From contig CM035357.1 of NCBI GenBank assembly GCA_020137815.1, positions 8,122,001 through 8,186,000 of the forward strand: a DNA stretch of 64,000 bases, in the 5' to 3' direction. The stretch's first letter is position 1. Each line of letters opens with the position of its first letter. The notes beneath the pieces were generated by a model. It ran no database searches, was not told the DNA's origin, and was given only the letters and a program-made list of their open reading frames with translations. The DNA is from Hormiphora californensis (taxonomy: Eukaryota; Animalia; Ctenophora). This document shows positions 30,597-58,759 of the stretch, piece after piece. A program made the position numbers and the translations under genes.

Positions 30597-31032
30597 GGTA
30601 AGTCGGAAGAACCTGTCCGTTCCTCTCATGAGCGCTCATGAGTGTATCATGAGTGTGTCATGAGTGTATCATGAGCGTATCATGAGACGTTTTTAGGTGT
30701 TTCAACGTCTCATGAGCGCTCATGAGTGTATCATGAGCGTATCATGAGTGTGTCATGAGTGCTCATGAGACGTTGCTCATGAGCGCTCATGAGACATATG
30801 TCTCATCCCATCTCTGTTTTAATGTCTCATGAGCGCTCATGAGACGTTTTGACCTACATATGCTCATGAGTGAATCATGAGACATGTCTCATGAGACGTT
30901 AGGGTGATGGTTAGGGTTGGGTTTAGGGTTGAGCTAGAGTTAGGGCTATTCCTTAGGTCTAGGGACCCGTAGAGTGTAGGGCTAGGTCTAAGCCTATGGG
31001 TCAACCCTAACCCTACCCCTACGGGGCCCTAG
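30597..31032. mobile_element. Half copy of the CTCATGAG Merlin-like MITE, truncated by a CR1 insertion
   Basis: Left arm and part of the spacer only. Confidence 0.8.
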
Positions 31033-31035
31033 GCT

Positions 31036-32600
31036 TAACTGCAGTAGCTTGGCATACTCGATTTGGATGTTGTGGAACAGGTCATTTGAAGACGGATCTG
31101 TCCCTAGTTGCTTAAAGCAACAGTTCATAACACCGTTATTCAAGAAGGGGGCTAAATCGAAACCTGTGAATTATCGCCCAGTGTCTATAACAAGTCACCT
31201 GTCTAAAGTGTTTGAGCGGCTGGTGAGGAAACGGATCAGTGACTACTTGGACGAGATGGAGTTGCAGAGTGACACACAGCATGGTTTTAGGAAGGGGCAC
31301 AGTACCATGACACAGCTACTAACCCATGTTGACATCATCCTATCTGAACTATGCGGTGATCAGGAAGTCGATGCTATCTACTTAGATTTTAGTAAAGCAT
31401 TTGATTCCGTGGATATCAATGTTCTGCTAGCTAAATTGAGGCGATATGGTATTGGAGGTCAACTCCTTCAGTGGATCAGTGCGTGGATCCTGGGCAGGAA
31501 TCAGTGTGTAATGGTGGATGGAGTGAGGTCACCCTGGGTTGAGGTACTTAGTGGGGTTGCCCAGGGTAGTGTGCTCGGACCACTTCTTTTCCTCATATAT
31601 ATTCTTCACCTGGAGTCAGTGCTAGACGGTAGCATGTGTCTAACTTTTGCTGACGATACTAAGTTGGTAAAAGCTATTTCGGATATGACTAGCCAGGCGT
31701 GCCTACAGAACGATCTTTTAAGAATGGCAGAATGGGCAAAGAAGAACAATATGAAGTTACATGAGGATAAATTTCAGCTCTTGAGCTATAGTCTGAATAA
31801 GTCTGCTATCCTCAGACAGTTTCCTTTCGCAGCTGAAGTGTTTTCATATACTACAAGCTCAGGTGTGCAGTTGATCCCCGAACCTGATGTTCGTGATCTG
31901 GGTGTCCAGATGTCTTCAGATGGGTCATAGACGAGGCACATTTCTATCATAGTGCGGAAGGCTTCCCTCTTGAGTGGCTGGATATTCAGCGTTTTTCGGG
32001 ACCGTTCTCCGGAGGTTATGGTGCAGCTTTTCAAGTCCTTGGTCAGGCCTATTCTTGATTACTGTTGCCTAGTCTGGAACCCTTCCAAGGCTGGTGATAT
32101 CAAGGCTATTGAGAATGTCCAACGTTGTTTCATCAGACGTCTTGATGGTATGCAGGGTCATGACTATTGGGATAGACTGAAATTACTCAATCTTCCTTCA
32201 GCGTCGGAGACAGCGCTACATTCTGATTCATGTGTGGAAGACGATTCATGGTTTTGTACCTAACTCTGCCAACCTAGTATTTCAACAGCACGGTAAACTG
32301 GGTATGCGGATAGTCCCACCACCTTACCCCTATAGAGCAGAAACGAAACGAGCTAATCAATTTCACTGCTCATTTGGTCCAAGAGCAGCTCATTTATGGA
32401 ACACTCTACCAGCTGCTGTCAATTCTTGTGTGAGCATGAATCAGTTCAAATCATCATTGGGCAATTACTTGACAGGATTTCACGATCGTCCTCCAGTCAG
32501 AGGGTACCCGCCACTTCCAAATGACCTTTCGCCTCAATGTGCTGTGCTGTGCTGATGAGTGTGAGTGTGAAGGGATAGTTTTTCAACTTAATTTTATTTA
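31036..32600 (+). mobile_element. 5'-truncated CR1-clade LINE (ORF2 reverse transcriptase), inactivated
   Basis: NYRPVSITS, QHGFRKG, YLDFSKAFDSV, SGVAQGSVLGPLLFLIYI, FADDTKL, SLVRPILDYC. In-frame TAG at 31928-31930 and a frameshift near 32195. Confidence 0.92.
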
Positions 32601-34274: not shown

Positions 34275-34455
34275 ATGATGTATTCATGGTACGCATTGAT
34301 TCTGTTTTTTTTTGGAAATATTAACATAGTGGATTCTGAATCTGTTCAACTCGTAATACTTGCTCGATCAAGGGCGCATACTTTACCTATTTGGCTGGGT
34401 TTTATTGAAGATCTTGACTACCCCAAATCGGAAATTTCTGTTTTCATACAAACAG
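34275..34455 (+). CDS. COLGALT1: Procollagen galactosyltransferase (GT25), exon 1
   Basis: Signal peptide plus VQLVILARSRAHTLPIWLGFIEDLDYPKSEISVFIQT; donor ag|gtacgt, phase 1. Confidence 0.88.
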
Positions 34456-34753
34456 GTACGTATATATGTATTGAATCGACGATCACTGCTAGGAAGTGCA
34501 AAGGTTGGCATTCGGCTTCTCAAAAAGCGTTGCCAGAAACATAGTTATATATTTTATGAGTGTATGGGCATTAAAATAAATTTGTAAGGCTATAGATTAA
34601 CTCGTATTATAACCAAATGAACATGAAACAGGATGAATGTGCATAAGGCGGAGTGACGTTTCCTTCATTTTCAGGAATGCACTACAAAATCTCGCACTTT
34701 AATGAACTACATTGTAAAATTATTTATTGAGCTAGTGATGTCCATGTTCGACA

Positions 34754-35792
34754 TCCCTAATTATAAAGTAGAAATGAACGTCGTAGTGAGGAGCAGGATG
34801 AAGTAACCACGTGTGCAAATGAGGGGGGTTGTCAAGGAGGTGCCCTGGGAGGGGTATGGGAGGTTGCACGTGCGGGTTGGTGCAGCGGGTGAGAGGGGCC
34901 CGGTGCCCAGATATTGCAAATACCCAAGAGATAAATGCCCTTAATTTGGCAGCAAATTAAAGGCGAGGCAGCATATTGGACAAGCTGCCTAGTAGTCAGC
35001 AGTTCAATAAATATCGCTGTCGGCAGTAATAAATGTAGGGGCCATTTAGATAGTTTTAAAAAAAGTGTCCCACCCGGGATCGGTCGGGAATCGAACCCGG
35101 GTCTCACGCGTCAGAGTGGAGGCAGCACAGGCAGCGCAAATTTACCCCATATTTACATAGAAAATTTAGCCTCATTTTATGCAATATCAGTTTTACTTTT
35201 CCGGCTATTATATTCGAAGAAGTATTCCAAACACGAATATGAAGGAAATAAACAAATTGAACGTCACAAATTTTCTTAATCTTTCTGCTGCCTCGGGTAC
35301 CATTATTTACCGATTTTTTGGCTATTCCCGCCCTTCTACCCATCCAATTTGGTAATATTCGGTGCAGGGACATCCACAGTATCGATAAACAAGTGCCTAA
35401 ACCGATAAACGGGGAAAAACGGTAAAACTTAGCATGATATAGAAGGCAGCATGAGGCAGCACGTATTTAGCTTAATTAAGATAGATCCGTGCTGCCGGCA
35501 GCACGAGTTCGATTCCCGACCGGGCCCGGGTGGGATAATTTTTTTAAATTTTTTTCAAACTTTATAAATGATTTATAAATGATTTCTAAAAACTTTCTAG
35601 ACATTTATTTTACTAGGCAGCAAAATCGTCGATTTTTGAGACAAAGTTGGCAGCATATTTGACTTTTGAAAATCGTATTTATCTAAAATTTTGAAAATCC
35701 GGGCACCGGGGAGAGGGGTGCTCCTGGCCCCTGGGTGAGGGAGAGTGTGGGGATTTGGGTCAACGGGTGCTCTACTTCAACGGGCTTTCTAG
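34754..35792 (+). mobile_element. Helitron-like element in COLGALT intron 1
   Basis: A|TCCCTAATTATAAAGTAGAAATGAACGTCGT ... CAACGGGCTTTCTAG|TC; 5' end similar to 39535. Confidence 0.55.
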
Positions 35793-36422
35793 TCATCATT
35801 ATGCAGATGGTTGGTAGTAGTGATATTGATAGTGATAAAGCAACATTTGCACGTGCAGTTTAACAGCAGCTCCGATGGGCTGGTTGGTTGGTTGGTATGA
35901 GCGGCTGGTGATTTGGGGGCCTTGTTAGAGGCTCTCCTGTTGACCATGAGAGGCTTCCCTGGTTTGGGATTTGCTGCCGCTGGGGGGTTAGATTGCGCAC
36001 GTGAGTGATTTCGGGGGTGAACTTGCTTACCACCGAGAGTTCGATTTGCCCTGGCGCGTCTCGGTGGGTTTGTAGTGAGTTAGGTGTTGACCGGGGGGCC
36101 CCTGTAGGAGAAAAATGGGGGTGGCCCCGGTTTGCAGCGTACTTCTTCCCTTTGATTTGATTTAGTTATTCCAGCTTTTTGGTCTCTTTTATAAATTCCT
36201 TGAATATCTTTATTGATTCTCCCCAGTTATTTCGGACCGCAGTGATGTGATCCTTGTAGCTGGTGCCTTCAAAGTTTAAGTGTCGCTGGGCATCTGATAA
36301 TTATCTGAGAATCATTTGGAATTGCATGAAAACTTCGCTAAACGATAGCATCGATGTCATATAATCACAAAACATGTGTTTTGAAGCCAGTTGGGAGCTA
36401 AATTTTTCGTCAAAAATAATTC

Positions 36423-36667
36423 AAAGTCCAGGTCTCTCCCAATCATTGGGCATGCCTGCGGTGCTTATCTCCGATTGAAGTCCTAAGCCACTCCGTACCG
36501 AAGTACTAAACTTGCAGTCTGGGGACCAGCCCTACGTGCAAGGGAGTGTGACTTTCCAGCAGTTGATGTACCAATTTATAGCTCGGTCAACTAGACGGCT
36601 TGCGTCGGGTCCCGAACCCGGGACCTTCTGCATGAGAGGCGAGTGTGTTACCACTACACCACCCAGC
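36423..36667 (-). mobile_element. tRNA-derived SINE
   Basis: Minus-strand head ggctgggTGGTGTAGTGGtaacacactcgcctctcatgcagaaggtcccgGGTTCGGGACC (A and B boxes) followed by a non-tRNA body. Confidence 0.7.
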
Positions 36668-37589
36668 CGACTGGGTACCAAAACACTCGTAAAAATAAGA
36701 AAATTTTGATCTGAAAAACAGCCATTTTGGAGATCAGTTTAAAAAAAAACCGTAGCTTGTATAGATAACGAATGATAACATCAACATTATTATTGATACA
36801 CCTTAGCAATGGTTTGATCTAAGTTTTCTAGTGCTTGAAATGTTAATTTATGACTATTTGGTCTGGCAAGCGCTGCCGGAAGTAAAAAAAACTGAAAAAT
36901 AACGCCATTTCTTTAAACCCTTGCCAGTGCCGAGTTTTAAATTTTCTATTGTTCTATTTTGGGCTCATTTTAAAGCTAACACTGTTGTGAGATTGCAACT
37001 TCGACAACTCTTGCTATTTCTGGTGTCAAGGTGGCAATATATCTTCAGCTGGAATATAAAAACTGTTTTCCAATCGCAAAATGTCCATACTAAACGGTAG
37101 AGCATGTTTTATGTGGTCCTGACTCGTAATTCGGGGGATAATAGCCAAGTGTCAATTATTATGAATCCCTCTAATATTCAAGTTATTTTTAAGAATATAT
37201 AGCCAAAAATGTTCTTAGTTTTGATGTTCTTGGTTTTAGATTTCCTTAGTTTTTCTACAGTCTTAAATTTTTAGTTTCTTTCGTGATTTTCTTGAAGATT
37301 ATTACCGGTTTACTACAGTACACCGCGGTGATGTGATCCTCGTGACATTTACGTACTTGCTGGATTTCATTATTTGATTTGCCAGTAGTTGACATGTGAA
37401 CTGATGGTCTAATTGGTTCTATATTAAACTCTAAAGGATTTGTCCGCTGAAGTTGTACTTGTAAAACCTCCTCAATTAGGGTGGGCGGGGTGTGGCGGCG
37501 GGGCGGGGTGGCGGGTTAGAGAGCGTGGTCGTTTTATGGCTGGCGTTTATCTGGCGCTTTTATAAAGTATAGTAATTTGTCAGATATCG

Positions 37590-37712
37590 TCCCATTTCTG
37601 AGCAGCATCCCATTGCTGGGCATCATCCCTTCGCAGGGCATCATCCCATTTCTGGGCACCATCCCTTTGCAGGGCATCGTCCCATTGCTGGGCACCATCC
37701 CTTTGCAGGGCA
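37590..37712. repeat. 18-bp minisatellite (gggcatcatcccattgct-like)
   Basis: About 6-7 tandem variant units. Confidence 0.8.
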
Positions 37713-38093
37713 TGTGGAGTACACAGAGAAGCAGGAGCATACATTGTGAACTCAGCTCAGATGGGCTGAGAGGGGTTCAACCGGCGATGGTAGGGACATG
37801 CATATATGCAAATTGAGCAATATATGCAAATTGAGCAATATTGAAACTTTATAGCTCTTGGAAAGAGCTCGGTGTGTGCACTTGCGCACAGCGTTTATAT
37901 TAGTGCGTTAGCTAAAGTAGTTTGAAATGGACTTTGAAGTGTGTCATCAAAACTGCTTTAAGAGGACATCAAAATTAGGACTATAGAGTGTCAAAAATTC
38001 ACCCTAACTTTTCGGGCACACAGTATCCATTTTTTCGATCAGAAGCCGTCTGCAGGTTATAAATTGAGTTCAAAGACATGTGTTACCTTGCAG

Positions 38094-38235
38094 ATCACAA
38101 TCAAGACAACACGCCAGTACTCTTGTCAGAATGGGCGGAAAGAGTGAAACCTCTTTACAGAGACGTTTTTCTGAACACTACCTCACAGATATCATACTCT
38201 TCGTCAAAAGGACCTTCACAGTGGGACGAAGACAG
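38094..38235 (+). CDS. COLGALT1: Procollagen galactosyltransferase, exon 2
   Basis: ccttgcag| (D)HNQDNTPVLLSEWAERVKPLYRDVFLNTTSQISYSSSKGPSQWDED(R) ag|gtaaaa; phase 1 in, phase 2 out. Confidence 0.9.
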
Positions 38236-38714
38236 GTAAAATTCAAAACTCGAGCCATTTTGTAATAAATCTTCAATTCTGGATTTGTTTTCTTCTTGAA
38301 TCATGAATGAGCTCTGTTCATGATTAAACAGATCTCATTCATTCATGATATTTAGCCAAAGCAGTTCCACAACGGTGGTATCTGCCAGCGAACTACCCTG
38401 CCCGCTGTATGTTTTCTCTGACTGCTAATCTCACTTCTCTCTTACACATACACGCCCTCACGGCGTACCTGGTGAACTTTTAACACGAACTCGATGGCTG
38501 ATAGAAACCACCACTTGTACGTTGTAGCTAAAGGTCTATTTAATGCCGCTACGGTGCGGGAAAAAAGAGTTTAATGCGTGAATGGGATTTTTTGGATAAT
38601 TGGCTGTGACAGAAATATGAGATAGAGTGCCACTATGGTGCTCTAAATGGTCCACCTAAAATCAAACACAAAACCCAAACTTTTCAAGTAAAACAAAACA
38701 AATTTCAAACAAAA

Positions 38715-38932
38715 TGTGAGTTGAAACTAAAGTGAGTTGAAAATAAAGTGTGTTGAGAAAAAAAGTGAGTTGAAAAAAAATAAATTAAAAATCAAAAATG
38801 AATAAAGTGAGTCGAAAAAAAAGTGAGTTGAAAAAAAGTGAATTGAAAAAAAAGTGAGTTGAAAAATAAAAAAGTGAGCTGAAAAAAAATTGAGTTGAAA
38901 AAAAGTAAATTGAAAAAAAGTGAAATGAGTTA
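38715..38932. repeat. ~15-bp minisatellite (aaaaaaagtgagttg)n
   Basis: Tandem units visible. Confidence 0.85.
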
Positions 38933-39334
38933 AGTTTTGTTTTTTTCCCTGAAAATTTTGTTTTTTGTCCACGCTCTAAATAGTCCACTATCTTAGAAAA
39001 GAAATTGAGAAAGAACGTGGGACTTAGCGTCCTCGCATTAGTGGGGGTAGGCGCTGGAATTAGGTCTCTATCTCATCTTACTACATATATATAATGCGAA
39101 AAGAGCTGAAACTTGATCCCCCTATGCATGTGATGAGGGACCGACGAGGGTCCCCAATTTTCCCATCATCAGCTGAGATCACATCATCCCACATGCATGA
39201 TCAGATCACCCCACTGAGGATCAGATCACTCACCCAAGATCAGATCACCCCACCCATGATCAGATCACCCCACTGAGGATCAGATCATCCCAGTGAGTAT
39301 CAGATCCCACATTTCACCCATTGTTCCACTGAGA

Positions 39335-39335
39335 C

Positions 39336-39368
<33 letters not shown>

Positions 39369-39389
39369 TAGAGGGGAGAGAGAGAGAGA

Positions 39390-39475
<86 letters not shown>

Positions 39476-39485
39476 AAGAGAGAGA
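39335..39485. repeat. (GA)n microsatellite
   Basis: Visible directly. Confidence 0.95.
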
Positions 39486-39534
39486 TATCAACGGCCGGTT
39501 CAACTAACGGGGTCCAACCAACGGGCTTTCTAGT

Positions 39535-39993
39535 TCTTATCATAAAGTACAAATGAACGTCGTGAAGGTGATGATGTAGTATCCCACGTGCAAATAGAGG
39601 GGGGTTTTGGGTACGGTGCGTGATAACATGAGACTGAGAGAGACAGCGCAGGAGGATAGAAGAAAGAGGGGATATCATACCCAAAGGGGGGTTGCGGGGG
39701 GATACTGCACGTGTATGTTTTTGGTTGTTTGTTACGTGTTCCTGTGGTGTTTAGTGGTGATTTGGGATCTACCGCCATGATTGCCAATGCCTTTCTACCT
39801 ACGTACCCCGTTGATTCTCTACACAGCTACAATTCTACGGATCTTTATCACCTGATTCTACATGTTATTCAGCGGGATTTCCCTTGATATTTATGACCAG
39901 CGCTCCCCGACATGGAGAGACAAAGAGTAAGAGGGGGAGAGAGACATAAGACGGGTGGGGGGCTGTTGTAGGACTTAACAATGGGCTTTCTGG
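39535..39993 (+). mobile_element. Helitron-like element, in tandem with a preceding CTAG end
   Basis: TCTTATCATAAAGTACAAATGAACGTCGT ... ATGGGCTTTCTGG|T; the last ~90 bp match 62661-62756. Confidence 0.55.
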
Positions 39994-40019
39994 TTTCCTT
40001 TTTTTTTTAGTCTTCATAC

Positions 40020-40099
40020 CTGGTGAGTTCCTAACTCCTCCATATTCAAGATTTTAAAGTACTCTGGCACACTTTTGTAGTATCCAGTAGATGTCATAC
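40020..40099 (-). CDS. COLGALT1: Procollagen galactosyltransferase, exon 4 (opposite strand)
   Basis: ttttatcctccag| (G)MTSTGYYKSVPEYFKILNMEELGTHQ |gtatga; matches COLGALT GMTSQGYY; phase 1 in, phase 0 out. Confidence 0.9.
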
Positions 40100-40252
40100 C
40101 TGGAGGATAAAAAAGTGCGTTTTTATTGCCAACAAAGTGAAAACAGAGTCCCACCCAAAGCACCGGGCACCGGCCTCAACTTTCCGGGTACCTGTTATAG
40201 GCCAAGTAGGTCACACCCTGTTAATTTTAGTATAATATGTCGTTTCGGGCTA

Positions 40253-43200
40253 ATATCACTGCGCTGGCAAGCGCAAAGGTGGCCCCATCCCCTCCCCCCT
40301 AAAACTTTTCCCGAAAAAGTGGGCCCGCTTGCCAACAGCGTATATAACAATTTTGAAGTTTTAGCCCATTTTGGAACTTTTCGACCCCTCATAACTCCGG
40401 AACCAGATGAGCTAGGAGGCTGAAATTTGGTACTAACAAGCTTCACATAGACCTCTACTGACGATAAAAATTTCAAGTAGCTAGCTCATTCCGGTCGCAA
40501 GTTATGACACCACCCCCCAAAACAGAAAATTCATGTGGCGATAGGTATCACTGCGCTGGCAAGCGCAAAGGTGGCCCCATCCATCCCCCCCAAAAACTTT
40601 TCCCCAAAAAGTGGGCCCGCTTGCCAACAGCGTAGATATAACAATTTTGAAGTTTTAGCCCATTTTGGCACTTTTCGACCCCTCCTAACTCCGGAACCAG
40701 ATGAGCTAGGAGGCTGAAATTTGGTACTAAGAAGCTTCACATAGACCTCTACTGACGGTAAAAATTTCAAGTAGGTAGCTGATTCCGGTCGCAAGTTATG
40801 ACACCACCCCCAAAACAGAAAATTCAGTGTGGCGATAGGTATATATATATATAGATAGATTATAGAATATAGACGCTTCACTGTGTAACACTTGTAGCTC
40901 GAACCATACTAGCTAGAGACTTGAACCAAGTTTTATCCGTTAGGAAATCGTTCGGGGCATGCATTAGTTAAGTTTCAAGTGAAAATGTCCACTATGACGG
41001 GCGTAATACGTCACAAAGTGACGTCATTGAAAAATCTCAGACCAAATATTTTCAAACGCCTCTAGCACCCTCAAGACATTTTCCAATTTCTGATTTGACG
41101 CAAAATCGTTAGTGGCAAATTGTCTGAACTTTCAGATACTATATCACAAATTTTTCTAACTTGTCATTTTCAGACCTTAAAACGCGTCGGAACTCAAAAA
41201 TTTGATGTGAAAATCCACAAAAAAATTCACATTTCGTGCAATCACTTCAGTTCTTCACCACCATGGCCTTTAAAACTTTTCACACGTTTAGTGCTTCATC
41301 GGCCGAATAGTCTGTCTTATTTTTTTACGTCGTCGTGACGTCACGTGTGACGTCACGACGTCAAAACGACGTCGAATTTTGAAAATTTCGTCAAATCAGT
41401 TTCCTAGTAGGAATCCTAGTAGGAATCCTACAACCCAGGATACATTTGAATTACATTTGAACACTTTAGTTGACAATTAGCTTAGTTGTTTGAGGTCATA
41501 AGTGACCTCAAACGACCAAAAAAGAATACAAATTTAGAGCAAAAACTAATTGAAATTAGTTCGCCAGAAAGGTGGCCCATTTTGAACTTACTCTCCTTCA
41601 TTTCCGTCACCTTTGAGTTGAAGGCGGAAAAGTTTACGGATACCTCGATGTCTTTGAAGCCTCAACTCAAAGGTGACGGAAATGAAGGAGAGTAAGTTCA
41701 AAATGGGCCACCTTTCTGGCGAACTAATTTCAATTAGTTTTTGCTCTAAATATATATCACTGCGCTGGCAAGCGCAAAGGTTGCCATTCCCCCTTCCCCA
41801 AACAGCAAAGCGCCGCCAGAAACGCAGTTATACGTTTTATGGGTGTTTTGACTGAAAACCCAGATTTCAGAAGGCTATAGCATGGCTCCCTTCATCCGTT
41901 TGACTTGAAATTTGGAATGTATACCCGGCTCGGGGTCATTAACTTAAGTTCAAAATTTCAAGTCTCTATCTCATCTGGAACTGAAGTTACAGACAGGTCC
42001 CATTTGCCCTAGATTCAGTGTAACACATATGCGCGCGCGCGCCGTAGGAGAGACGCTTTTTATAAACCATATTCACCCAAACGAAAAAGATAGAAACTTC
42101 TCGTTTTCACAGCTGGTAGATCTACTGGATGTGTGTGCATTAGTCGATGTGAGGTCCCTTTTGATCGCCAGGAACGTCCTACAGAACGTCTTAAATCGTC
42201 ATTTTTCAGACTCTGACTAAAATTCTTGAGCTCATTTTACACCCTGAAGACGGATTCTGATCGAAAATCGAAGGCTATATCATGAAAGAGAATTGTCTAA
42301 ACTTTCAGAAACTATATCGCGAATTTTCAAAACTAGACGTATAAGGGTCTTAAAACGCGTCTAAAGTGTTATACTGTTTAAAAATAGATATGACGATATG
42401 GGTTTTTCGCCATAGCAGACTCAAATCTCATCCAATCGATCTCAAACTGGTCAGTATCTTCATCTAGGTAATCCAGATGATTGACGTCATCATTATGACG
42501 TCATAACGACGTGACGTGACGTCATTTTATGACGTCAAAATGACGTCAAAAATGAAAATTTTGCAAATTCGCGATTCCATCCTCTCCTTACCTGTTCTAT
42601 TACATCTAAATGGATAAAAAATCCCAAAAATGATGCAAATTATACCAAAACTAATTGAAATTAGTAGGCCGGAAGGTTGCCCTATGATTGAGCTACCTTT
42701 GGCACCAGTACATTCCCTTTTGAAGATAGAAGAAGCATAGGTTATACCCTGACTGTACCCCGTGAATGTTGCGGTGGCAAAGGTAGCTCAAATCATAGGG
42801 CAACCTTTCCGGCCTACTAATTTCAATTAGTTTTGGATAATAATATATATATATGATAGATAGAATAGTATAGACGCTTCACTGTGGTAACACTTGTAGC
42901 TCGAACCATACTAGCTAGAGACTTGAACCAAGTTTTATCCGTTAGGAAATCGTTTGGGGCATGCATTAGTTAGGTTTCGAGTGAAAATGTCCACTATGAC
43001 GGGCGTAATGACGTCACAAGTGACGTCATTGAAAAATCTCAGACCAAATATTTTCAAACGCCTCTAGCCCCTCAAGACATTTTCTAATTCCTGATTTGAC
43101 GTAAAATCGTTAGTGGCAAATTGTCTGAACTTTCAGATACTGTATAGCGAATTTCTCTAACTTGCCATTTTTAGACCCTAAAACGCGTCGGAACTCAAAA

Positions 43201-43721
43201 ATTTGATGTGAAAATATATATAAAAACTCACATTTCGTGCAATAACTTCAGTTCTTGATGCCATGGCCTTTAAAACTTTTCACACGTTTAGTGCTTCATT
43301 GGCCAAATAGTCTGTCATAATTTTTTTACGTCGTTGTGACGTCGCATGTGACGTCACGACGTCAAAACGACGTCGAATTTTGAAAATTTCGTCAAATCAG
43401 TTTCCTACAACCCAGGATACATTTGAATTACATTTGAACACTTTAGTTGACAATTAGCTTAGTTGTTTGAGGTCTAAATGACCTCAAACGACCAAAAAAG
43501 AGTACAAATTTAGAGCAAAAACTAATTGAAATTAGTTCGCCAGAAAGGTGCCCATTTGAACTTACTCATCATTTCCGTCACCTTTGAGTTGAAGGCGGAA
43601 AAGTTTATGGATACCTCAATGTCTTTGAAGCCTCAACTCAAAGGTGACGGAAATGAAGGAGTAAGTTCAAAATGGGCCACCTTTCTGGCGAACTAATTTC
43701 AATTAGTTTTTGCTCTAAATT
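40253..43721 (+). mobile_element. Tandem array of two alternating repeat modules joined at TA-rich junctions; module B ends in a long hairpin
   Basis: Module A (tatcactgcgctggcaagcgcaaagg...) at about 40253, 40546 and 41755. Module B (agacgctt...TGACGTCA motifs...hairpin) at about 40870-41751, 42050-42836 and 42870-43721. Confidence 0.75.
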
Positions 43722-44461
43722 AGATAATATAAACCCTGCGCCGATAGCTGTAATATTAGTCGTTTGAAGATTTTACGCACACACGTTAACTGCGAGTTGG
43801 GGCATTACACACCCTGTTCCCGATTTACCAGACCAGTGCCCCTTTTCACGCGTTTCTTTTCATTCGAATAACAGAGAGAATAAATTTAGAGTAATCAAAT
43901 TATGTGTAAACACACAGTTTCGTCAACAAAAGAGAGGAAAACTTAGTTGCAACAGTTAGTATTCTATTCTTTTCTGTCTCTCATTGTCTCTTTTACTGTT
44001 CACTCTCCCTCACTGTGTGTATTTGCCCTTATGGGGGGGGGGGGGGGGTGAAGTTTTTGAAGCGATTTTCAAAAACTTCAAAAACTAAAATGGGTACGAA
44101 AATTCAAAAACTTTCAAAACTTCAAAAACCTATAGTCGCGGTCAAAAAGTCTGCTGAAATTTCGATTTTTTGGGGTTCGAAAAATCGACCAAAATTATTG
44201 AAACTAATTTTAATACCACTAAGACATCCTCTAGACACTTAAAACAAGTGTGGATAACTTCGTTTTTCTGCTAAAAGCCTCTCTATTTTCTCACGTGACC
44301 TTTACTAGGGAGAATGGCAAAAAATCCCTGGTCTAAATGGTATAGCTTCGTGCATGGCTCTTTGAATGTGTCCACCCGATTAAAGGTCCCCTCGAAGATT
44401 TAAAATAATACTGGAGCTAAACCTAAAAAATCGAAAGGGTAAAATGGAGAATGTGTCTTAC

Positions 44462-44661
44462 CTGCCCAAAAATTTGAGTATGCAAAGTTGCTGTTTATCT
44501 TGATAAGGGGTGCCACAACCGTTTTTTGTAGACTAATCAAGTGACGCAGGGTTGATGGATTGGTCAGGAAAATATCGGTGTCTACGAAAAAAACGTATCT
44601 TATGCCTGTTTTACGGCCGTAATCAAGAGCTGACTGTCGAATTCTCATCATGTGAATGTAC
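44462..44661 (-). CDS. COLGALT1: Procollagen galactosyltransferase, exon 3 (opposite strand)
   Basis: tttttcttcaag| (R)YIHMMRIRQSALDYGRKTGIRYVFFVDTDIFLTNPSTLRHLISLQKTVVAPLIKINSNFAYSNFWA g|gtaaga; DxD motif; phase 2 in, phase 1 out. Confidence 0.92.
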
Positions 44662-45359
44662 CTTGAAGAAAAATTTTAAATGTAGTGTGAACAAGAAGAA
44701 AACAGAACAAACTTTTTTCCCTGCCCAGATGATCTTTTTAGTACGTGTGGTAAAAAGATCATTCAGGGTTTATAAATCAGTGTGGAAGTTAACTAAATGT
44801 CGCGATACTAGGAGCGCTTAGAGCAGCGCTTAGAGCAGCATGTGCAAAAATCGTGTGCCACACATTTTTTTTAAAAACACGCAAAACAAAAGCTTTTCAA
44901 GATCGACTTTTCACGTTTTGGCTCATAACTCCTGTTATTAGACTTCAAACCGGCGCCATTCGATGGGCCTTAGAATTCTATTTCTAAAGGTACCCAAACT
45001 GTAACTTTTCAGGAACCAGGAGTTATGAGCTAAAACGTGAAAAGTCGACCTTGAAAAGTTTTTTCGTGAGTTTAAAAACTAACTTTGTGTGGCGCACGAA
45101 TATAGTGTGTACTGCCTAGGTGATCCTACTAGAACAACGCTCCATCATCAATGAAATATGATGCCTTTTCGCGTGTACACAGGCACACTTTTGAGTTGAG
45201 ACACAAACTACGACTTGAATACTACAAAATAATATCGCATTATAACTTTAAAACTGGTTGTCTAATTAGTCAACCCATCAGCTTTACCGGCTCACATATC
45301 AGAACCCAATTAGAAGCAGGCGTGGCACATGCCATATCACATTTCTGCTAATGCTATAC

Positions 45360-48300
45360 CAGGGTGTGAACTGCATGTCGTGTTTGCTAGTCGCGAGCGC
45401 GCTTGCGAGACAAGCAAACACGTCAAGGTTCATTAACAAGCATGCTGCTCAGTCATTTTAGATTTAATACACAATGTAAGGATACCATGTAATAGGTGAG
45501 ACTCTTGCCGTCACCCTCGTTCAAGTCCCGTGAAAAACGGAGCAGTACACGCAAACTGATGCCCATTTTCCTCGCGTGACCCCGATTCAGCAGTTTGAGA
45601 CACCAACTCTTTAGGGGGCCATATCTCAGGAACCAGACAAGATAGGAAAAATCGCCGTCTAATGAGGCGTACAGTTTTTAATCTAGTTTACCACTGTACC
45701 GGCCGTTTCACTCTCCGACCTAAAACAAAAATCGCAACCCCACAAAACTTCAAAATAATGAAATTCGCATCTCGCATGTCGTGTTGCATGTCGTGTCATG
45801 TTATTGACGCGCTCGCGTTCAACTCTCACACAGCAGCTGCAGAACATGGCGGGAAACATCGAGGAGTAGAGAGAGGGTCGGTGCCGAATCAAATATTTCT
45901 TGATCTTGATCTATTCCATCTCTCAGCTATCCTACCCCTCATCAACTCGATCTCTCAGCTACCCTACCCCTCATCTACTCCATCTTTCAGCTACCCTACC
46001 CCTCATCTACTCCATCTTTCAGCTACCCTACCCCTTATCTAGTCCATCTCTCAGCTACCCTACTCCTCATCTACTCCATCTCTCAGCTTCCCTATTAGGG
46101 AAGCATAGAGATGGAAACAATTAGGGGTAGGGAATCCCTATCCATAATCGTTTCCATCTCTATGCTTCCCTAGCCCTCATCAACTCCATCTTTCAGCTAC
46201 CCTACCCCTAATCTAGTCCATCTCTCCGCTACCCTACTCCTCATCTACTCCATCTCTCAGCTACCCTACCTCCCATTTACTCCATCTCTCAGCTTCCCTA
46301 CCTCCCATTTACTCCATCTCTCAGCTTACCTACCTCCCATTTACTCCATATCTCAGCTTCCCTACCTGCCATTTACTCCATCTCTCAGATACCCTACCTC
46401 CCATTTACTCCATCTCTCAGCTTACCTACCTCCCATTCACTCCATCTCTCAGGTTCCCTACCTCCCATTTACTCCATCTCTCAGCTTCCCTACCTCCCAT
46501 TTACTCCATCCCTCAGCTTCCCTACCTCCCATTTACTCCATCCTTGCCTCCCATTTACTCCATCTCTCAGCTACCCTACCTCCCATTCACTCCATCTCTC
46601 AACTACCCTACCCCCATTTACTCCATCTCTCAGCTTCCCTACCTCCCATTTACTCCATCTCTCAGCTTCCCTACCTCCCATTTACTCCATCCCTCAGCTT
46701 CCCTACCTCCCATTTACTCCATATCTCAGCTTCCCTACCTGCCATTTACTCCATCTCTCAGATACCCTACCTCCCATTTACTCCATCTCTCAGCTTACCT
46801 ACCTCCCATTCACTCCATTTCTCAGGTTCCCTACCTCCCATTTACTCCATCTCTCAGCTTCCCTACCTCCCATTTACTCCATCCCTCAGCTTCCCTACCT
46901 CCCATTTACTCCATCCTTGCCTCCCATTTACTCCATCTCTCAGCTACCCTACCTCCCATTCACTCCATCTCTCAACTACCCTACCCCCCATTTACTCCAT
47001 CTCTCAGCTTCCCTACCTCCCATTTACTCCATCTCTCAGCTACCCTACCTCCCATTCACTCCATCTCTCAACTACCCTACCCCCCATTTACTCCATCTCT
47101 CAGCTTCCCTACCTCCCATTTACTCCATCTCTCAGCTTCCCTACCTCCCATTTACTCCATCCCTCAGCTTCCCTACCTCCCATTTACTCCATATCTCAGC
47201 TTCCCTACCTGCCATTTACTCCATCTCTCAGATACCCTACCTCCCATTTACTCCATCTCTCAGCTTACCTACCTCCCATTCACTCCATTTCTCAGGTTCC
47301 CTACCTCCCATTTACTCCATCTCTCAGCTTCCCTACCTCCCATTTACTCCATCCCTCAGCTTCCCTACCTCCCATTTACTCCATCCTTGCCTCCCATTTA
47401 CTCCATCTCTCAGCTACCCTACCTCCCATTCACTCCATCTCTCAACTACCCTACCCCCCATTTACTCCATCTCTCAGCTTCCCTACCTCCCATTTACTCC
47501 ATCTCTCAGCTTCCCTACCTCCCATTTACTCCATCCCTCAGCTTCCCTACCTCCTATTTACTCCATCTCTCAGGGGTAGGAATGTTAGGATAAATGAGAG
47601 ATGGAGTAAATGGGAGGTAGGGAAGGTAAGAGATGGAGTAAATGGGAGGTAGGGAAGCTGAGAGATGGAGTAAATGGGAGGTAGGGAGGCTGAGAGATGG
47701 AGTAAATGGGGGGTAGGGTAGTTGAGAGATGGAGTGAATGGGAGGTAGGGTAGCTGAGAGATGGAGTAAATGGGAGGCAAGGATGGAGTAAATGGGAGGT
47801 AGGGAAGCTGAGAGATGGAGTAAATGGGAGGTAGGGTAGCTGAAAGATGGAGTAAATGGGAGGTAGGGTAGCTGAGAGATGGAGTAAATGGGAGGTAGGG
47901 TAGCTGAGAGATGGAGTGAATGGGAGGTAGGGTAGCTGAAAGATGGAGTAAATGGGAGGTAGGGAAGCTGAGAGATGGAGTAAATGGGAGGTAGGTAAGC
48001 TGAGAGATGGAGTAAATTGGAGGTAGGGAAGCTGAGAGATGGAGTAAATGGGAGGTAGGGAAGCTGAGAGATGAAGTAAATGGGAGGTAGGGTAGCTGAG
48101 AGATGGAGTAAATGGCAGGTAGGGAAGCTGAGAGATGGAGTAAATGGGAGGTAGGGTAGCTGAGAGATGGAGTAAATGGGAGGTAGGGAAGCTGAGGGAT
48201 GGAGTAAATGGGAGGTAGGGAAGCTGAGAGATGGAGTAAATGGGAGGTAGGGAACCTGAGAGATGGAGTGAATGGGAGGTAGGTAAGCTGAGAGATGGAG

Positions 48301-49366
48301 TAAATGGGAGGTAGGGTATCTGAGAGATGGAGTAAATGGCAGGTAGGGTAGCTGAGAGATGGAGTAAATGGGAGGTAGGGAAGCTGAGGGATGGAGTAAA
48401 TGGGAGGTAGGGAAGCTGAGAGATGGAGTAAATGGGAGGTAGGGAACCTGAGAGATGGAGTGAATGGGAGGTAGGTAAGCTGAGAGATGGAGTAAATGGG
48501 AGGTAGGGTATCTGAGAGATGGAGTAAATGGCAGGTAGGGAAGCTGAGATATGGAGTAAATGGGAGGTAGGTAAGCTGAGAGATGGAGTAAATGGGAGGT
48601 AGGGAAGCTGAGAGATGGAGTAAATGGGAGGTAGGGAAGCTGAGAGATGGAGTAGATGAGGAGTAGGGTAGCTGAGAGATGGACTAGATAAGGGGTAGGG
48701 TAGCTGAAAGATGAAGTAGATGAGGGGTAGGGTAGCTGAAAGATGGAGTAGATGAGGGGTAGGGTAGCTGAGAGATCGAGTTGATGAGGGGTAGGATAGC
48801 TGAGAGATGGAATAGATCAAGATCAAGAAATATTTGATTCGGCACCGACCCTCTCTCTACTCCTCGATGTTTCCCGCCATGTTCTGCAGCTGCTGTGTGA
48901 GAGTTGAACGCGAGCGCGTCAATAACATGACACGACATGCAACACGACATGCGAGATGCGAATTTCATTATTTTGAAGTTTTGTGGGGTTGCGATTTTTG
49001 TTTTAGGTCGGAGAGTGAAACGGCCGGTACAGTGGTAAACTAGATTAAAAACTGTACGCCTCATTAGACGGCGATTTTTCCTATCTTGTCTGGTTCCTGA
49101 GATATGGCCCCCTAAAGAGTTGGTGTCTCAAACTGCTGAATCGGGGTCACGCGAGGAAAATGGGCATCAGTTTGCGTGTACTGCTCCGTTTTTCACGGGA
49201 CTTGAACGAGGGTGACGGCAAGAGTCTCACCTATTACATGGTATCCTTACATTGTGTATTAAATCTAAAATGACTGAGCAGCATGCTTGTTAATGAACCT
49301 TGACGTGTTTGCTTGTCTCGCAAGCGCGCTCGCGACTAGCAAACACGACATGCAGTTCACACCCTG
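45360..49366. mobile_element. 4-kb foldback element with ~730-bp TIRs and an inverted 32-bp minisatellite core
   Basis: CAGGGTGTGAACTGCATG...CATGCAGTTCACACCCTG flanked by tatac on both sides. The minisatellite tcccatttactccatctctcagcttccctacc switches strand at about 47575-47595. Confidence 0.9.
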
Positions 49367-49509
49367 TATACAGATTCTATCAAATATGATGGTCCTTGAA
49401 GTTGGGCAGGGAAATACAGCATTATGGGTACATAGTGCAAATAATTCTTGTTAATCATATCATGAATGAGATCTGTTCAGAATTAAAATATGAAGGAAAA
49501 TATCTGGTG

Positions 49510-49562
49510 AAGGCCGGCCGCTGGGCTCGAACCGACAACCTCTGGGTATCGCGTCCATTGCC
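49510..49562 (-). mobile_element. tRNA-like SINE head fragment
   Basis: ...cccagaggttgtcGGTTCGAGCCCagcgg B-box-like sequence; no full cloverleaf. Confidence 0.4.
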
Positions 49563-49604
49563 GACAGAATTTTAACATAGGATATCGTGCATCGGTTCGT
49601 CAAT

Positions 49605-50670
49605 TAATCAAAACTCATCGAAAAGTTGGTCAAAATGGTTCTAACAAAAACCAGTGTTCTAGAGAATTGTCTGGCAAACATTTTGGTTGCAAGATTGACG
49701 TTCCAAGTCTTACTATTCGTCAGATATATCGTCCTAAAGTCAAACATACGTGTTCAAGAAATCCGACCGGGGTTCACGTTTTGAAAAATTCACATATGCA
49801 AAGTTGCTCGGATCACATTGCATCCCTCATAAGAGTTGTGGGAAATTGTCTGGCGGTCATTTTGGTACCTAGGTTTTTGTCATAGCTCAATGTTTAGAGT
49901 GTCTTATGACTGTCTAAATACGAAATTCAACCAACATTTTTGAGGGGATCACGTGTCATCAACAAATGGGTAAAATAATTTGAAATTTATAAGAGCTTCA
50001 TTGGAATCGTCTAAGGTTATTTTGATACCATGGTTTTTCCCATAGCTTTACGTTTATGTTGCGTTATGAATGTAGGAACATGAAGATTTTTCTATGCTGA
50101 GTCTTAGTTGGTATCGGCTCACAACCCCTAATTAGGTGGCTCGGTGCCGTGTGTAATCCCATGATAATCAGCCACATCGTCTCAATTTCGATCTGGACAC
50201 TTTGACAGGGTTGTTACTGACGATTTGGCAAGGGCCCCTTTAATGTGTATGGATACTCAAGTGGTTCTATCCTCAAACCCTATCATGCACTAAAGTTTTC
50301 CACCTCTATGAGTCTTCATAACCGGCAAATGCATGCGATACGTTGAGACCACTTTAATGGGAAATTCAATTTCTGACAGTCTAAAACACTCTAAACATGG
50401 AAGCTAGAATAGAAAACCCGGGTACCAAAATGACCGCCAGACAATTTCCTACAACTCTTATGAGGGATGCAATGTGATCCGAGCAACTTTGCATTTGTGA
50501 ATTTTTCAAAACGTGAACCCTGGTCGGATTTCATGAACACGTAATTTTGACTGACGATTGGTAAGACTTGGAAAGTCAATCTTGCAACCAAAATGTTCGC
50601 CAGACAATTCTCTAGAACACTGGTTTTTGTTAGAACCATTTTGACCAATTTTTCGATGAGTTTTGGTTGG
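49605..50670. mobile_element. Foldback element with ~310-bp imperfect arms
   Basis: 49605-49914 is the reverse complement of 50375-50670. Confidence 0.75.
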
Positions 50671-50800
50671 TTTAATGGAGCCCGGTCATGACCCAAAATC
50701 GCAGGTCACGCAAAGAGTAAAGACAGTGGGACAATATACAATACCACACTCTCACAATGGATCATCATCACCTGCTATTTTGTGCTAATATCTGCCCTCA

Positions 50801-53210
50801 TAGGAACTATGATTGGACTTAGTCCACCGTCAGCCACTGAGGACTGTCTGAGATTCAGAAGAGATAAGAGTGAATGTTGGTTTAGCATGCTGATTACGTG
50901 GTATGTTAACAGTGTGTTTAACATTGTTCTCTCAAAGTATTTTATGTCAACCAAAACAGGTAAGCGAACATGTAAATGTAAAATTTATTCTTTTATTATA
51001 TTCTCTAGGTCACTGAGATACTGCTTTGACACACTATTAAAGTACGTATCGTCAGTTCCTAGAACTTTACTTGTTAGGAATCACCCAGATGTTAAAAACC
51101 CTGTGCCAAACACATAATATGAAATCTAAGTTGAGTGTGGTTTATTGTAATGTTAATGGACTTGTTAAGATACATTCGATAGGAAGTGATAGCCCTCAAC
51201 TTTTGGAACCTAGGTTTGTTTTTTTGGGTCACTTAGCCACACGCTGAGCAAACCACATACCGCCCGGGTATGGGTAACTATGGCGCTAAGCTCCCCCTTT
51301 CTCAACTTCGGTGAAATGGGGGAACCTATGGCATCAGTCATATAGTCTGTCGAGTTGGGTCTGTTCTGGAACAAGTTAACGTTTTGCCTTTGAGAGTGCC
51401 TTGAGCCTAGTTTGTTCTGGAACAAGGTAACCCACACCAGGGGCTTAAAAAAGTTTTCTAAAAGGGCTGAAAATTGCCCCCACCAAGGGCTGAAAATCGA
51501 TAAAATATTGTTCTAAATTGCTTTAATTCATTAAAATTTCCGGGGGCTTCGCCCCTTGTGACTGAAACTCGTTGAAAAAGTTTTCTAAAAGGGCTAAAAA
51601 TTGTTACAAATTGTTGATTAAAATTCATTAAAAACTAAAATTTTCCGGGGGCTTCGCCCCCTAGCCCCCACCAAGGGCTCTGCCCCTAAACCCCCTACCG
51701 CAGTTCCCTCGGCGCCGCTTCGCGGCACCTCGGTCGCTAGGTTTGGAGTTGGAGTGTGGCCTTTGGCCACACCCCCCCCCAAATATCCGTGCTGGGGCCA
51801 CCCCTGCAATGGGCCATTTCTAAGCTTATTTGGGACTCATTGGGCATTATTTAAGCTGTGTAGAGACCACTGGGGAGTAGGTGACCTACAACTTTGGCTC
51901 ATGCAACTATGGCTCATAGAATCTATGAGCCATAAATTCTATGAGCCATAGATGCATACAACTATGGCTCATAGAAATGTGATCTGATTAGGTTCTAATT
52001 TCTATGGGCCAAAGCTAATGAGAGTGAGAGGGAAGTGAGTGGCACGTGAGTGACACGTGAGTGACACGTGAGACGCACGTGAGAGATCGAATCATATAAT
52101 ATTGAATGAGCACAATCATACTATTATTAAAGCAAATAGGGAAATCCCGTGTCCCATTTTTTTTACCAAATATGGCAAATAGTGTCACGCACAAAATTTC
52201 TCGAAATGGCCTTTTGCACGTGTTGTCCCTAGAGGGACCCTGGCAACCTGCCAGCTTGAGCCTTAAACTGCACGTGCATCCTTGATTCATCTCTCTGCGG
52301 TCTGCCGGTTGTGTGGTTGATCGTTTGCTCGATTTGATCTGTTCACCACGTTTTGTGAACATGACTACTCAACTTCAACACAATCGCCCGCGAGTTTGGA
52401 GGAGCCATATGTCCCAAACTGACGTTGACGCCTATAGACTACGTGATAGAATCCTACAAAAGAGGTGATTATTATTCAAAAAATGTTGTCAACACACGTA
52501 ATGACAAAGTATCAATGGCACTAATATGAAATGACAGTAATACGTGAAAGTATTTTGCAAATGTTCTCCTTCATTTTTTTGAGTTGCCAAAAACGAATTT
52601 ACAGGACATTTTTTAAACAGCTGTAGCAAAAATATGAATTCGACTTGAGAGCTCAAATTGCATATTTGAGGTCTCCTTGGCATGGCCTACAACCCTACGG
52701 TGAGAGATTGCCCTGCACTCGACCAAAATACAGACATAAGCTGTAGCAAAAATATGAATTCGACTTGAGAGCTCAAATTGCATATTTGAGGTCTCCTTGG
52801 CATGGCCTACAACCCTACGGTGAGAGATTGCCCTGCACTCGACAAAAAATTTCGGTCGGTGTACCCTTAACAAGTCCATTAACATTACAATAAACCACAC
52901 TCAACTTAGATTTCATATTATGTGTTTGGCTCAGGGTTTTTAACATCTGGGTGATTCCTAACAAGTAAAGTTCTAGGAACTGACGATACGTACTTTAATA
53001 GTGTGTCAACGCAGTATCTCAGCGACCTAGAGAATATAATAAAAGAATAAATTTTACATTTACATGTTCGCTTACCTGTTTTGGTTGACATAAAATACTT
53101 TGAGAGAATGTTAAACACACTGTTAACATACCACGTAATCAGCATGCTAAACCATTACTCACTCTTCTGAATCAGTGGCTGACGGTGGACTAAGTCCAAT
53201 CATAGTTCCT
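50801..53210. mobile_element. Inverted repeat pair (~370-bp arms) enclosing 1.7 kb of other repeats
   Basis: 50801-51169 is the reverse complement of 52866-53210; 120-bp tandem duplication at 52620-52843. Confidence 0.75.
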
Positions 53211-53792
53211 TGTCTTAGTAGTCATACCTCTTCCCCCTGCAAACCTCCCAATACTTTGTCTATATTGCTCGGCGCAGATCAGTTTGGTACGTGTTATTGG
53301 GCATAGTTGTAACCACATGGCTTGAAGCGACCGTTTTTAGGGTGGTCTGGAGCACTATGTGTCCGGGTACATTTTGGCGCCAAATCCTCCAACCCGTACT
53401 CTATGTCTAAAATCCTAACCCAACCCAAAACCTAACCCTAACCCTAACCCTAACCTCGAACCCAAATAACGGCCCTAACACTTCTAAATTAGTATAGGGG
53501 TAGAGCAAACTCTCGTTTCCGGCCTAACGGCCGAACTCTCAAGTTCGCGGCGAAAGGCGGACTCTCTATCTAATTTAGATTTATGTAGATATGTATAGAG
53601 TCCAATTTGTTTAGACTTTTTAGATAAAGAGTCCACCCTGTGTGGACTTTTTAGATAAAGAGTCCTCCTAGAGTTTAGAATTATTTGGACTCTTTATCTA
53701 AATCTAAATTTAGATATAGAGTCCACTGTAGACTTAGAGTGTAGCACTAGAGTCCGCACACCGGTTTACCCAATCTACCTATAAACCTACAG

Positions 53793-53931
53793 GTACCGAT
53801 GGTACATTCTGTACTTTTACTGGATCTGGAAGGAGAGAATGCCGAGGGTCTCCGTTATTACCCTATGAGCGCTAATTACGATGGACCGATTGATGACATC
53901 ATACACTTTGCAACTAATGCAAAAATCAACG
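53793..53931 (+). CDS. COLGALT1: Procollagen galactosyltransferase, exon 5
   Basis: ctacag| VPMVHSVLLLDL...YDGPIDDIIHFATNAKIN g|gcaagt (GC donor). Confidence 0.9.
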
Positions 53932-54202
53932 GCAAGTTATTATTAAAATATTCGGATTGGGTCATAAAAAGGCCCTATGATTGACATAGTTCGAGGCACT
54001 CATGAAAGCCATGGTTGTTGACCTGAAGTGAAAACTGTGAATCCAAGGGATCGCTGCTCCCCAATGACAGCAAGTGGGTGGAAGTACGAGAGTGCATATA
54101 ACACAAACACACTCGCAAAAACCTTTCCATGCAACCATTCAAATGCATGGCGGTCTGTCGATATGAACTTGAGCATTGGTGACAATTGCATGCTTTTTCC
54201 AG

Positions 54203-54474
54203 GTATCTCCATGTTCATTAACAACGATCAAGTATATGGGTTCATGCCCAAACGCGAGAACTACGAATCAATGGAAGAGGAAGTAAAAGGGTTCTTTGAA
54301 TATATTGTGGACTTCCTCATTTATCAGATCGACAAACCTATGCCTAAATCTAAGTTTGTCACTCCGTCTCCACCAACAAAATTTGGGTTTGATGAAATCT
54401 ATCTGATTAATTTAACTAGGAGAACCGAACGGAGGAAAAGAATGTTAATGCTTCTAGAACTACTTGGTATTCAG
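54203..54474 (+). CDS. COLGALT1: Procollagen galactosyltransferase, exon 6
   Basis: tttttccag| (G)ISMFINNDQVYGF...KFGFDEIYLINLTRRTERRKRM...GIQ |gtaagt. Confidence 0.92.
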
Positions 54475-54645
54475 GTAAGTCTAATTGGCAAATGTTATCT
54501 TTCATCAGAATTCTCAGACAAACAGTTGGGCTATATGTAGCAGTTAATCACGTCATATTAATTTTTATCTAATTAAAGTTAAAGAGGAGGGGAAATTACC
54601 ATCTTGTTAGTGTAGTGACTATTTGAAATACGTTACTTCACCTAG

Positions 54646-54992
54646 GTTAAGATATTTGATGCAGTAGATGGAAGACAGCTAACACAAGAAATATTGGACA
54701 GTATGGAAGTTAAACAGCTCGCTGGCTATGAGGATCCCTATCATAAACGGGCATTAAAATTTGGTGAAATCGGATGTTTTCTCTCTCATTTTCGGATATG
54801 GGAAGAAATGGTTGCTAAAAACTACCAGAAAGTTCTTATATTGGAGGATGATTTACGATTTGCTCCGAATTTCAATTCTAACTTTGAAGAGATGCTTTAT
54901 GAACTTGAAGTTCTCAATCTTGATTGGGAATTATTGTACATTTCAAGGAAGATACTAAAACACTCTGAACAGTGGGTGAGAGGAAGTTCAAG
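54646..54992 (+). CDS. COLGALT1: Procollagen galactosyltransferase, exon 7 (further exons not identified)
   Basis: cacctag| VKIFDAVDG...GEIGCFLSH...VLILEDDLRF...WELLYISRK...SS ag|gtatgt. Confidence 0.93.
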
Positions 54993-55309
54993 GTATGTAT
55001 CCCTTGCTACGGCTACACAGGACCCAACCTGGTATCATTTTATCAAATAGATAGATGATATCTATGTATAATTCCAGTCCATAGTGTGTCCAGTTTCCCG
55101 AGCGTGGATAGCAGGAGCAGATTTCATCTTCCCATCAGTGTTGTAAAGAGAGTTGTTGTAGAAGTTAGACTCGTGCTCCTTAAAGGTTGACAAGATACCT
55201 AAAACTGTTCGTCTATCGTCTTATTTTGATTTATCATTAATTTTCAGGATTTTTTCAACATTTTTTGTCGGCTAGAAATATGTACAAAATAGGGGGTCTA
55301 CTGATAAAC

Positions 55310-58519: not shown

Positions 58520-58759
58520 TATATCAACCTAGTTATCCCCACACTGAATTTTCTGTTTTGGGGGTGGTGTTATAACTTTTGAACAAAAAGAGCTAGCCAC
58601 TTGAAATTTTTACCATCGATAGAGGTCTACAAGAAGCTTCTAAGTACAAAATTTCAGCTTCCTAGCTCTTCCGGTTCGGGAGTTATGGCATGTCAAAAAG
58701 TGCCAAAATGGGCTAAAAGTATGAAATAACTATATATACGCTGTGAGCAAGCGGTCCGT

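Follow-up and report, generated by a model that had tools for sequence, protein, structure and literature searches.

Two internal exons on the opposite strand in the COLGALT gene of the ctenophore Hormiphora californensis: a possible young intragenic inversion

Introduction

Inversions produced by staggered breaks are recognised by inverted duplications at their breakpoints, the shortest of which measures 46 bp in the study of Ranz et al. (2007, PMC1885836). In C. elegans eri-6/7, as described by Zhang et al. (2024, PMC11414722), an inversion in a locus rich in transposable elements is repaired by trans-splicing via direct repeats of ~930 bp, and in this species the inverted arrangement is more frequent than the other. 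Here we analyse the gene of the collagen galactosyltransferase COLGALT in the ctenophore Hormiphora californensis. It lies in a stretch of 64,000 nucleotides (assembly GCA_020137815.1, contig CM035357.1, positions 8,122,001 to 8,186,000 of the forward strand), hereafter called the window, where five exons are on the plus strand and the internal exons 3 and 4 on the minus strand. In the mouse, Colgalt1 mutants display skeletal and muscle defects (PMC6602307).

The analysis follows up a preliminary description of the window, made from its sequence. It is built on the strands of the exons, a 21-nt inverted duplicate at both ends of the block carrying exons 3 and 4, and left-junction contigs of two samples, all of which are directly observed. 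The best explanation that we can offer is a recent inversion of a block of ~11 kb with a likely loss-of-function allele, and we are evenly divided as to whether it is right.

Results

Exon layout and gene identity

The exons were checked in the sequence and by tblastn with seven homologues and with P0261, the COLGALT orthologue of Bolinopsis microptera (XP_063686182.1). P0261 matched all seven exons (E 4e-42 to 3e-05), and exons 3 and 4 were matched on the minus strand only, where they stand in the order expected for that strand. The coordinates and strands first proposed for the seven exons (Table 1) proved exact. Acceptors are AG in 7/7 cases and donors GT in 6/7, the remaining one being GC. 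Joined across strands, the exons form 1361 nt, or 453 codons with 0 stops; the junctions are phase-compatible, without stop or frameshift, as had been claimed. The joined protein of 453 residues is identical to P0261 at 254 positions, no window residue stands opposite a gap, and in this alignment over exons 1-7 the GT1 domain is N-terminal and collinear with GT2. Neither blastn nor tblastn detected an extra copy of exon 3 or 4 on either strand within the window, in agreement with the earlier report of no plus-strand copy. Later COLGALT exons, from the YSYW region onward, were not found in the window by tblastn with the homologues and P0261.

The assignment to the GT25 family comes from exon 7, where PF01755 (Glyco_transf_25) exceeds its cut-off (E 2e-21), and from the LEDD of the exon-joined translation, which supplies the catalytic EDD motif. 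VDTD in exon 3 is likely the GT1 DxD motif. The role of EDD in COLGALT and the requirement of the human counterpart of the GT1 DxD motif for folding are described in PMC12003778. Exon 7 is also 98% identical to P0001, a Pleurobrachia bachei model according to the label from its source; this model covers exons 6-7 and later parts only, and the sequence ahead of them is unrelated. Protein searches found no full-length Pleurobrachia protein. A metagenome scan with exon 3 returned two loci (46% and 36% identity) and no ctenophore transcript.

The AG immediately before the exon 1 ATG would fit an acceptor for spliced-leader addition. Elsewhere in the window, positions 28264-28310 of the minus strand resemble the ctenophore spliced leader presented in PMC8527503 and probably are a copy of a spliced-leader RNA gene.

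A short inverted duplicate at both ends of the block

The exon strands require one breakpoint in 38236-40019 and another in 44662-53792. These intervals, already given in the preliminary description, were right and can now be narrowed to ~38327-38352 and 49457-49477. Indeed, a short-word search found one copy of a breakpoint footprint per required interval, the two being inverted relative to each other. By fuzzy search the motif occurs at three sites only in the window (38300-38327, 38327-38351 and 49457-49486). At both diagnostic positions the left inverted copy has the right-hand version, and this ties the left junction to the right one. The 28,125 bases outside repeats contain only 3 isolated inverted pairs of 16-mers, one of them the footprint pair; the two required intervals represent 0.79% of all pairs, which puts the placement of the footprint by chance at ~2%. 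An inverted match of 16 nt was reached in 2/300 Markov shuffles.

By self-BLAST, the two required intervals share no long inverted repeat (0 pairs at E<1e-3), and the window has no N gap. A repeat-driven misjoin or a scaffold flip would usually show such a trace.

Table 1. Coordinates of the COLGALT exons, the proposed inversion and the associated repeats within the window.
Feature	Position	Strand	Remarks
COLGALT exon 1	34275-34455	+	ATG, hydrophobic N-terminus; 29/60 identical to P0261
COLGALT exon 2	38094-38235	+	26/48 identical to P0261
28-nt direct copy of 49459-49486	38300-38327	+	25/28 alike; 5' arm and loop of a local hairpin
Left breakpoint footprint	38327-38351	-	inverted duplicate of 49457-49477: 21 nt identical plus 4-nt slip
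Inverted block (putative, ~11.1 kb)	38352-49456	-	from exon strands and inverted duplicate
Two head-to-tail, presumably Helitron-like elements	39075-39995	+	3' ends CTAG, CTGG; (GA)78 run
COLGALT exon 4	40099-40020	-	inverted, intact; 16/27 identical to P0261
Repeat stack in intron 3 (3.46 kb)	40255-43718		missing from allele in run X4
COLGALT exon 3	44661-44462	-	inverted, intact; 39/66 identical to P0261; carries VDTD
Foldback element (4 kb)	45360-49366		716-bp arms, 1 mismatch; 32-bp satellite core; intact 5-bp target duplication
Right breakpoint footprint	49457-49477	+	partner of 38327-38351
COLGALT exon 5	53793-53931	+	GC donor (53931-53933, intron 5); 32/46 identical to P0261
COLGALT exon 6	54203-54474	+	42/91 identical to P0261
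COLGALT exon 7	54646-54992	+	Pfam Glyco_transf_25, EDD motif; 70/115 identical to P0261

Sequencing runs across the left junction

Twenty-two sequencing runs were compared, six of which hold at least half of the words and come from samples S1 and S2 of two studies. Contig placement refers to the pieces and joints listed (32/23,798 and 15/112, respectively); none of these joints changes strand. In run X3 (S1), contig 37830-38497 spans the left junction with 0 differences, at a depth of 78 vs 64-70 on exon contigs; in run X4 (S2), contig 37831-38382 does so, also with 0 differences, at 286 vs 195-230. A half-depth contig found elsewhere in each run has 43 (X3) and 138 (X4). The X4 junction contig extends exactly 31 letters past 38351, and X3 cover runs on to 39217. 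No branching was seen at the left junction in the X3 and X4 contigs, from which rare forms would drop out, and under the listed exon positions there was no second copy at 90% identity. An inversion in the heterozygous state should interrupt contigs where its ends lie; judging from this unbroken, full-depth left junction, both chromosome copies probably carry the inversion in both samples. Thus, the inversion looks real and homozygous, and it does not look like a private heterozygous allele.

A further X4 contig, 39963-40254, links the exon-4 flank to the Helitron-like end in the assembled arrangement. The same contig is without 40255-43718, so S2 differs from the assembled haplotype. The eight listed X4 pieces contain 0 substitutions in ~3,080 letters, indicating a recent common origin of the haplotypes. 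In organism B, intron pieces are ~8-10% different from the window. Its exons 1, 3 and 4 are covered in run X11, and in X10 and X11 no contig was found over exon 2 (82% likeness) or across the junction; this exon 2 gap could result from filtering or from a second lesion in the relative. Run X12, an RNA run, holds 0.19 of the words of 53700-55100, with no piece over exons 1-4 among the 8 of 23 listed, and neither X12 nor X13, both from mixed seawater samples, has a listed piece on exon 2; no RNA junction of either arrangement was seen in these runs. Run X22, labelled like X1, holds 0.00 of the words.

Coding consequence

A plus-strand pre-mRNA would be expected to splice exon 2 to exon 5. This splice skips 280 nt, shifts the frame and meets a stop at codon 133. 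Without exons 3-4, the protein would lack the likely GT1 DxD motif and the whole catalytic GT2 domain.

Repeats, mobile elements and rejected breakpoint candidates

Dense foldbacks had been proposed to promote the inversion. In the foldback element of the block, which is young, the intact 5-bp target duplication indicates that the flanks were contiguous at insertion; the element is a passenger within the block, and we ruled it out as the cause. As a rough measure, the summed contig depth of its arm is ~2,200-2,500x single-copy in X3 and X4 and ~1x in X11, which suggests a recent burst of foldback elements in organism A.

Other candidate breakpoints were rejected. For an element truncated at 39026, the window contains no match to the missing part (0 hits when up to 3 mismatches are allowed). 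One X10 contig has a loose end that abuts 38414 and is similar to 49429-49458 (score 41 vs at most 30 for shuffles); we did not retain it as a link between the block ends, since the motif belongs to a small repeat family, with another copy at a score of 34 and further pieces. The GC-skew sign change near 40 kb is repeat-dominated and was not used. The depth table also shows a fragment of an X10 contig at 38332-38362, over the right half of the left footprint, which is too short to be informative.

The elements at 39075-39995 are labelled Helitron-like on the basis of end motifs that we take to be typical of Helitrons; four such 3' ends occur in the window, all on the plus strand. The empty site of the 3.46-kb stack is a short palindrome, and X3 looks heterozygous for this stack. 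In intron 4, an inverted pair of ~360 nt (92%; 50802-51169 and 52866-53210) without obvious target duplication is possibly a second small rearrangement. Further away, a 6.5-kb satellite (6500-13050) consists of ~165-nt units made of a palindromic 10-mer, and broken reverse-transcriptase elements (Pfam RVT_1) lie at 3139-5747 (minus) and 30992-32552 (plus), with a PHD finger upstream of the first. Rfam gave 0 matches.

Finally, ~58600-62000 is error-rich and unpolished: the mean length of base runs rises to 2.49 (59-60 kb) vs ~1.4 elsewhere. This segment starts right after a 1.3-kb palindrome and looks like a raw long-read patch that could conceal the next COLGALT exon or have lost it.

Discussion

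In the scenario that we favour, a staggered break or a template switch would have flipped ~38352-49456 within the chromosome. A staggered break would leave the 21-nt inverted duplicate at the ends of the block, and the orientation would switch at the 38327-38351 junction. That the exons have stayed clean would then likely reflect the youth of the event, measured against the low sequence diversity at the locus. Of the foldback-promoted null inversion put forward in the preliminary description, the null inversion is retained as the best reading; the promoting role of the foldback is dropped, the target duplication being intact and no long inverted repeat flanking the block.

Several points weigh against an inversion that silenced the gene. 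The coding sequence appears constrained: of 42 columns with conservation in 90% or more of 122 homologues, 41 are retained, and the 3 exon differences to organism B (among 40 of 236 rows listed) are all synonymous. Of the 5 positions that differ from P0001, 2 have the commoner residue in the window and none the clearly rarer one, and exons 3 and 4 are each at 59% identity to P0261, within a range of 46-70% for the other exons. A homozygous null of a conserved enzyme would be odd. Moreover, since haplotypes that appear to be inverted still differ by the 3.46-kb indel, the inversion must have some age. S1 and S2 are both flagged as possible assembly sources, and contigs lose rare variants. No collinear allele was seen among the runs, and the ancestral state is deduced from protein order only. 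The stronger hairpin obtained on re-inversion is not significant, 341/2000 random flanks being equal. The contigs cover the breakpoints in the two samples only in part, the left junction being crossed in X3 and X4 and the right one unbridged; 39187-39993 is likewise unbridged among the pieces listed. The lack of decay is compatible with a null inversion provided that it is young: since the haplotypes share recent ancestry, the exons need not have decayed yet. Alternatively, undecayed exons can reflect a rescue of the gene.

Could the gene be collinear in the animal, and the segment have been flipped by the assembly? One misjoin would then lie inside the Helitron-like pair or the (GA)78 run (39187-39993) and one in 49478-53792, and the 21-nt pair would be an old direct duplicate inside the true intron 2. 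Such an error would account for the intact, constrained exons and for the apparently homozygous junction without any special biology; the unbridged stretch leaves room for the left misjoin, and an assembly error is not far-fetched because the same assembly contains the noisy, unpolished patch at ~58.6-62 kb. However, at the right a misjoin presupposes a gap or a reciprocal repeat, and neither is present: the best inverted matches between the intervals are the 16- and 13-nt pieces of the footprint, others being at most 13 nt, and there is no N gap. In addition, all four Helitron-like 3' ends are on the plus strand, the joint of the Helitron-like pair has a form seen at two other places of the window, and the 21-nt pair would have to straddle a misjoin by chance. 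Misassembly has become less likely than when it was first raised; we consider it unlikely, though still a serious contender.

Somewhat further down the scale, and in our view rather improbable, is a working gene. The inversion would be common or fixed, and the COLGALT mRNA would be rebuilt by double trans-splicing of sense and antisense pre-mRNAs, exons 3-4 of a minus-strand pre-mRNA being inserted between exons 2 and 5 of the plus-strand one, perhaps with the 28-nt direct repeat (38300-38327 and 49459-49486), which the inversion would have left behind, and the spliced-leader machinery as aids. This would suit the left junction, unbroken and at full depth in two samples whose haplotypes can be told apart, the lack of a second copy under the listed exons, and splice sites and phases that are intact and show no sign of decay. 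The repeat is suitably placed for this: one copy is close to the donor of exon 2 and the other upstream of the acceptor of exon 5, and each could pair with the opposite copy on the antisense transcript. Many ctenophore mRNAs receive spliced leaders (PMC8527503), the window has a leader-like gene at 28.3 kb, and eri-6/7 provides a precedent for an inversion repaired by trans-splicing (PMC11414722). Yet the best direct match here is 21 nt (BLAST) or 28 nt (by eye), compared with ~930 bp in eri-6/7, and two trans-splices per message would be required, engineered internal-exon replacement being described as inefficient in PMC3167625. No promoter for the minus-strand transcript was identified. Over the block, moreover, the two pre-mRNAs would be complementary throughout, so that the splice sites could become inaccessible.

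The reversible inversion mentioned in the preliminary description found no support. Recombination between the 21-nt inverted copies would flip exons 3-4 in some cells, and by sequence logic a crossover in the inverted pair would give back the collinear gene. However, the left junction is unbranched in the contigs of both samples, so the restored form is absent or rare in bulk DNA; the copies differ by the 4-nt slip; and no recombinase was recognised among the 9 open reading frame pieces scanned. We know of no such reversible DNA switch in ctenophores, and regard this explanation as the least credible. An explanation of some other kind seems very improbable as well.

If the null inversion is the true explanation, a young intragenic inversion apparently removes a collagen galactosyltransferase from living comb jellies, and this would bear on the dispensability of collagen galactosylation in ctenophores. 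If the gene works, it would have natural internal exons supplied from the opposite strand via double trans-splicing. Searches of the open-licence literature found no report of this locus, nor of a natural gene in which double trans-splicing joins internal exons from the opposite strand. The case is one of an apparently homozygous inversion through a conserved, undecayed gene, for which ordinary readings lead and the trans-splicing outcome would be striking if true.

Comparison with known systems

At the protein level, the window gene resembles COLGALT/GLT25D galactosyltransferases such as P0261 in encoding a two-domain GT1-GT2 protein. P0261 is annotated as one continuous protein, unlike the strand-switched gene of the window. 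One dynein gene of Giardia has internal pieces joined at both ends. Rearranged coding pieces, joined by the spliceosome, are described in Giardia for HSP90, the p68 helicase and dynein heavy chains (PMC10711314), and COLGALT would share the rearrangement. In that account, however, the pieces are distant, introns base-pair, the host is a reduced protist and the mRNA is demonstrated, whereas a joined COLGALT mRNA is hypothetical.

The preliminary description had taken Drosophila mod(mdg4) as the model for trans-splicing. As presented in PMC4528330, that gene is similar in that small local inversions have placed some of its coding exons on the other strand. Its exons form alternative 3'-terminal clusters with their own precursors, whereas COLGALT exons 3-4 are single, constitutive, internal and required for the frame. 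We therefore abandoned the mod(mdg4) model and kept trans-splicing as such, eri-6/7 being closer. Like eri-6/7 in the description of PMC11414722, COLGALT is annotated as continuous in a relative, has some exons inverted and lies in a locus rich in transposable elements. Here too there are differences: eri-6 is a 5' part that needs one trans-splice, whereas the internal exons of COLGALT would need two, and the ~930-bp direct repeats and demonstrated fused mRNA of eri-6/7 contrast with 28 nt and a hypothetical message here. Thus, COLGALT looks eri-6/7-like in layout, without the long direct repeats.

The inversions by staggered breaks described in PMC1885836 resemble the COLGALT locus with respect to the breakpoints, in that a non-repeat inverted duplicate stands at both ends without an inverted pair of transposons. 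Compared with the cases given there, the COLGALT block is much smaller (11 kb), both breaks would fall in introns of one gene, the duplicate is shorter (21 nt vs at least 46 bp) and an extra 28-nt direct copy is present. Altogether, the COLGALT locus is best read as an inversion-disrupted gene, the result of a known kind of event, with breakpoints that are newly proposed here.

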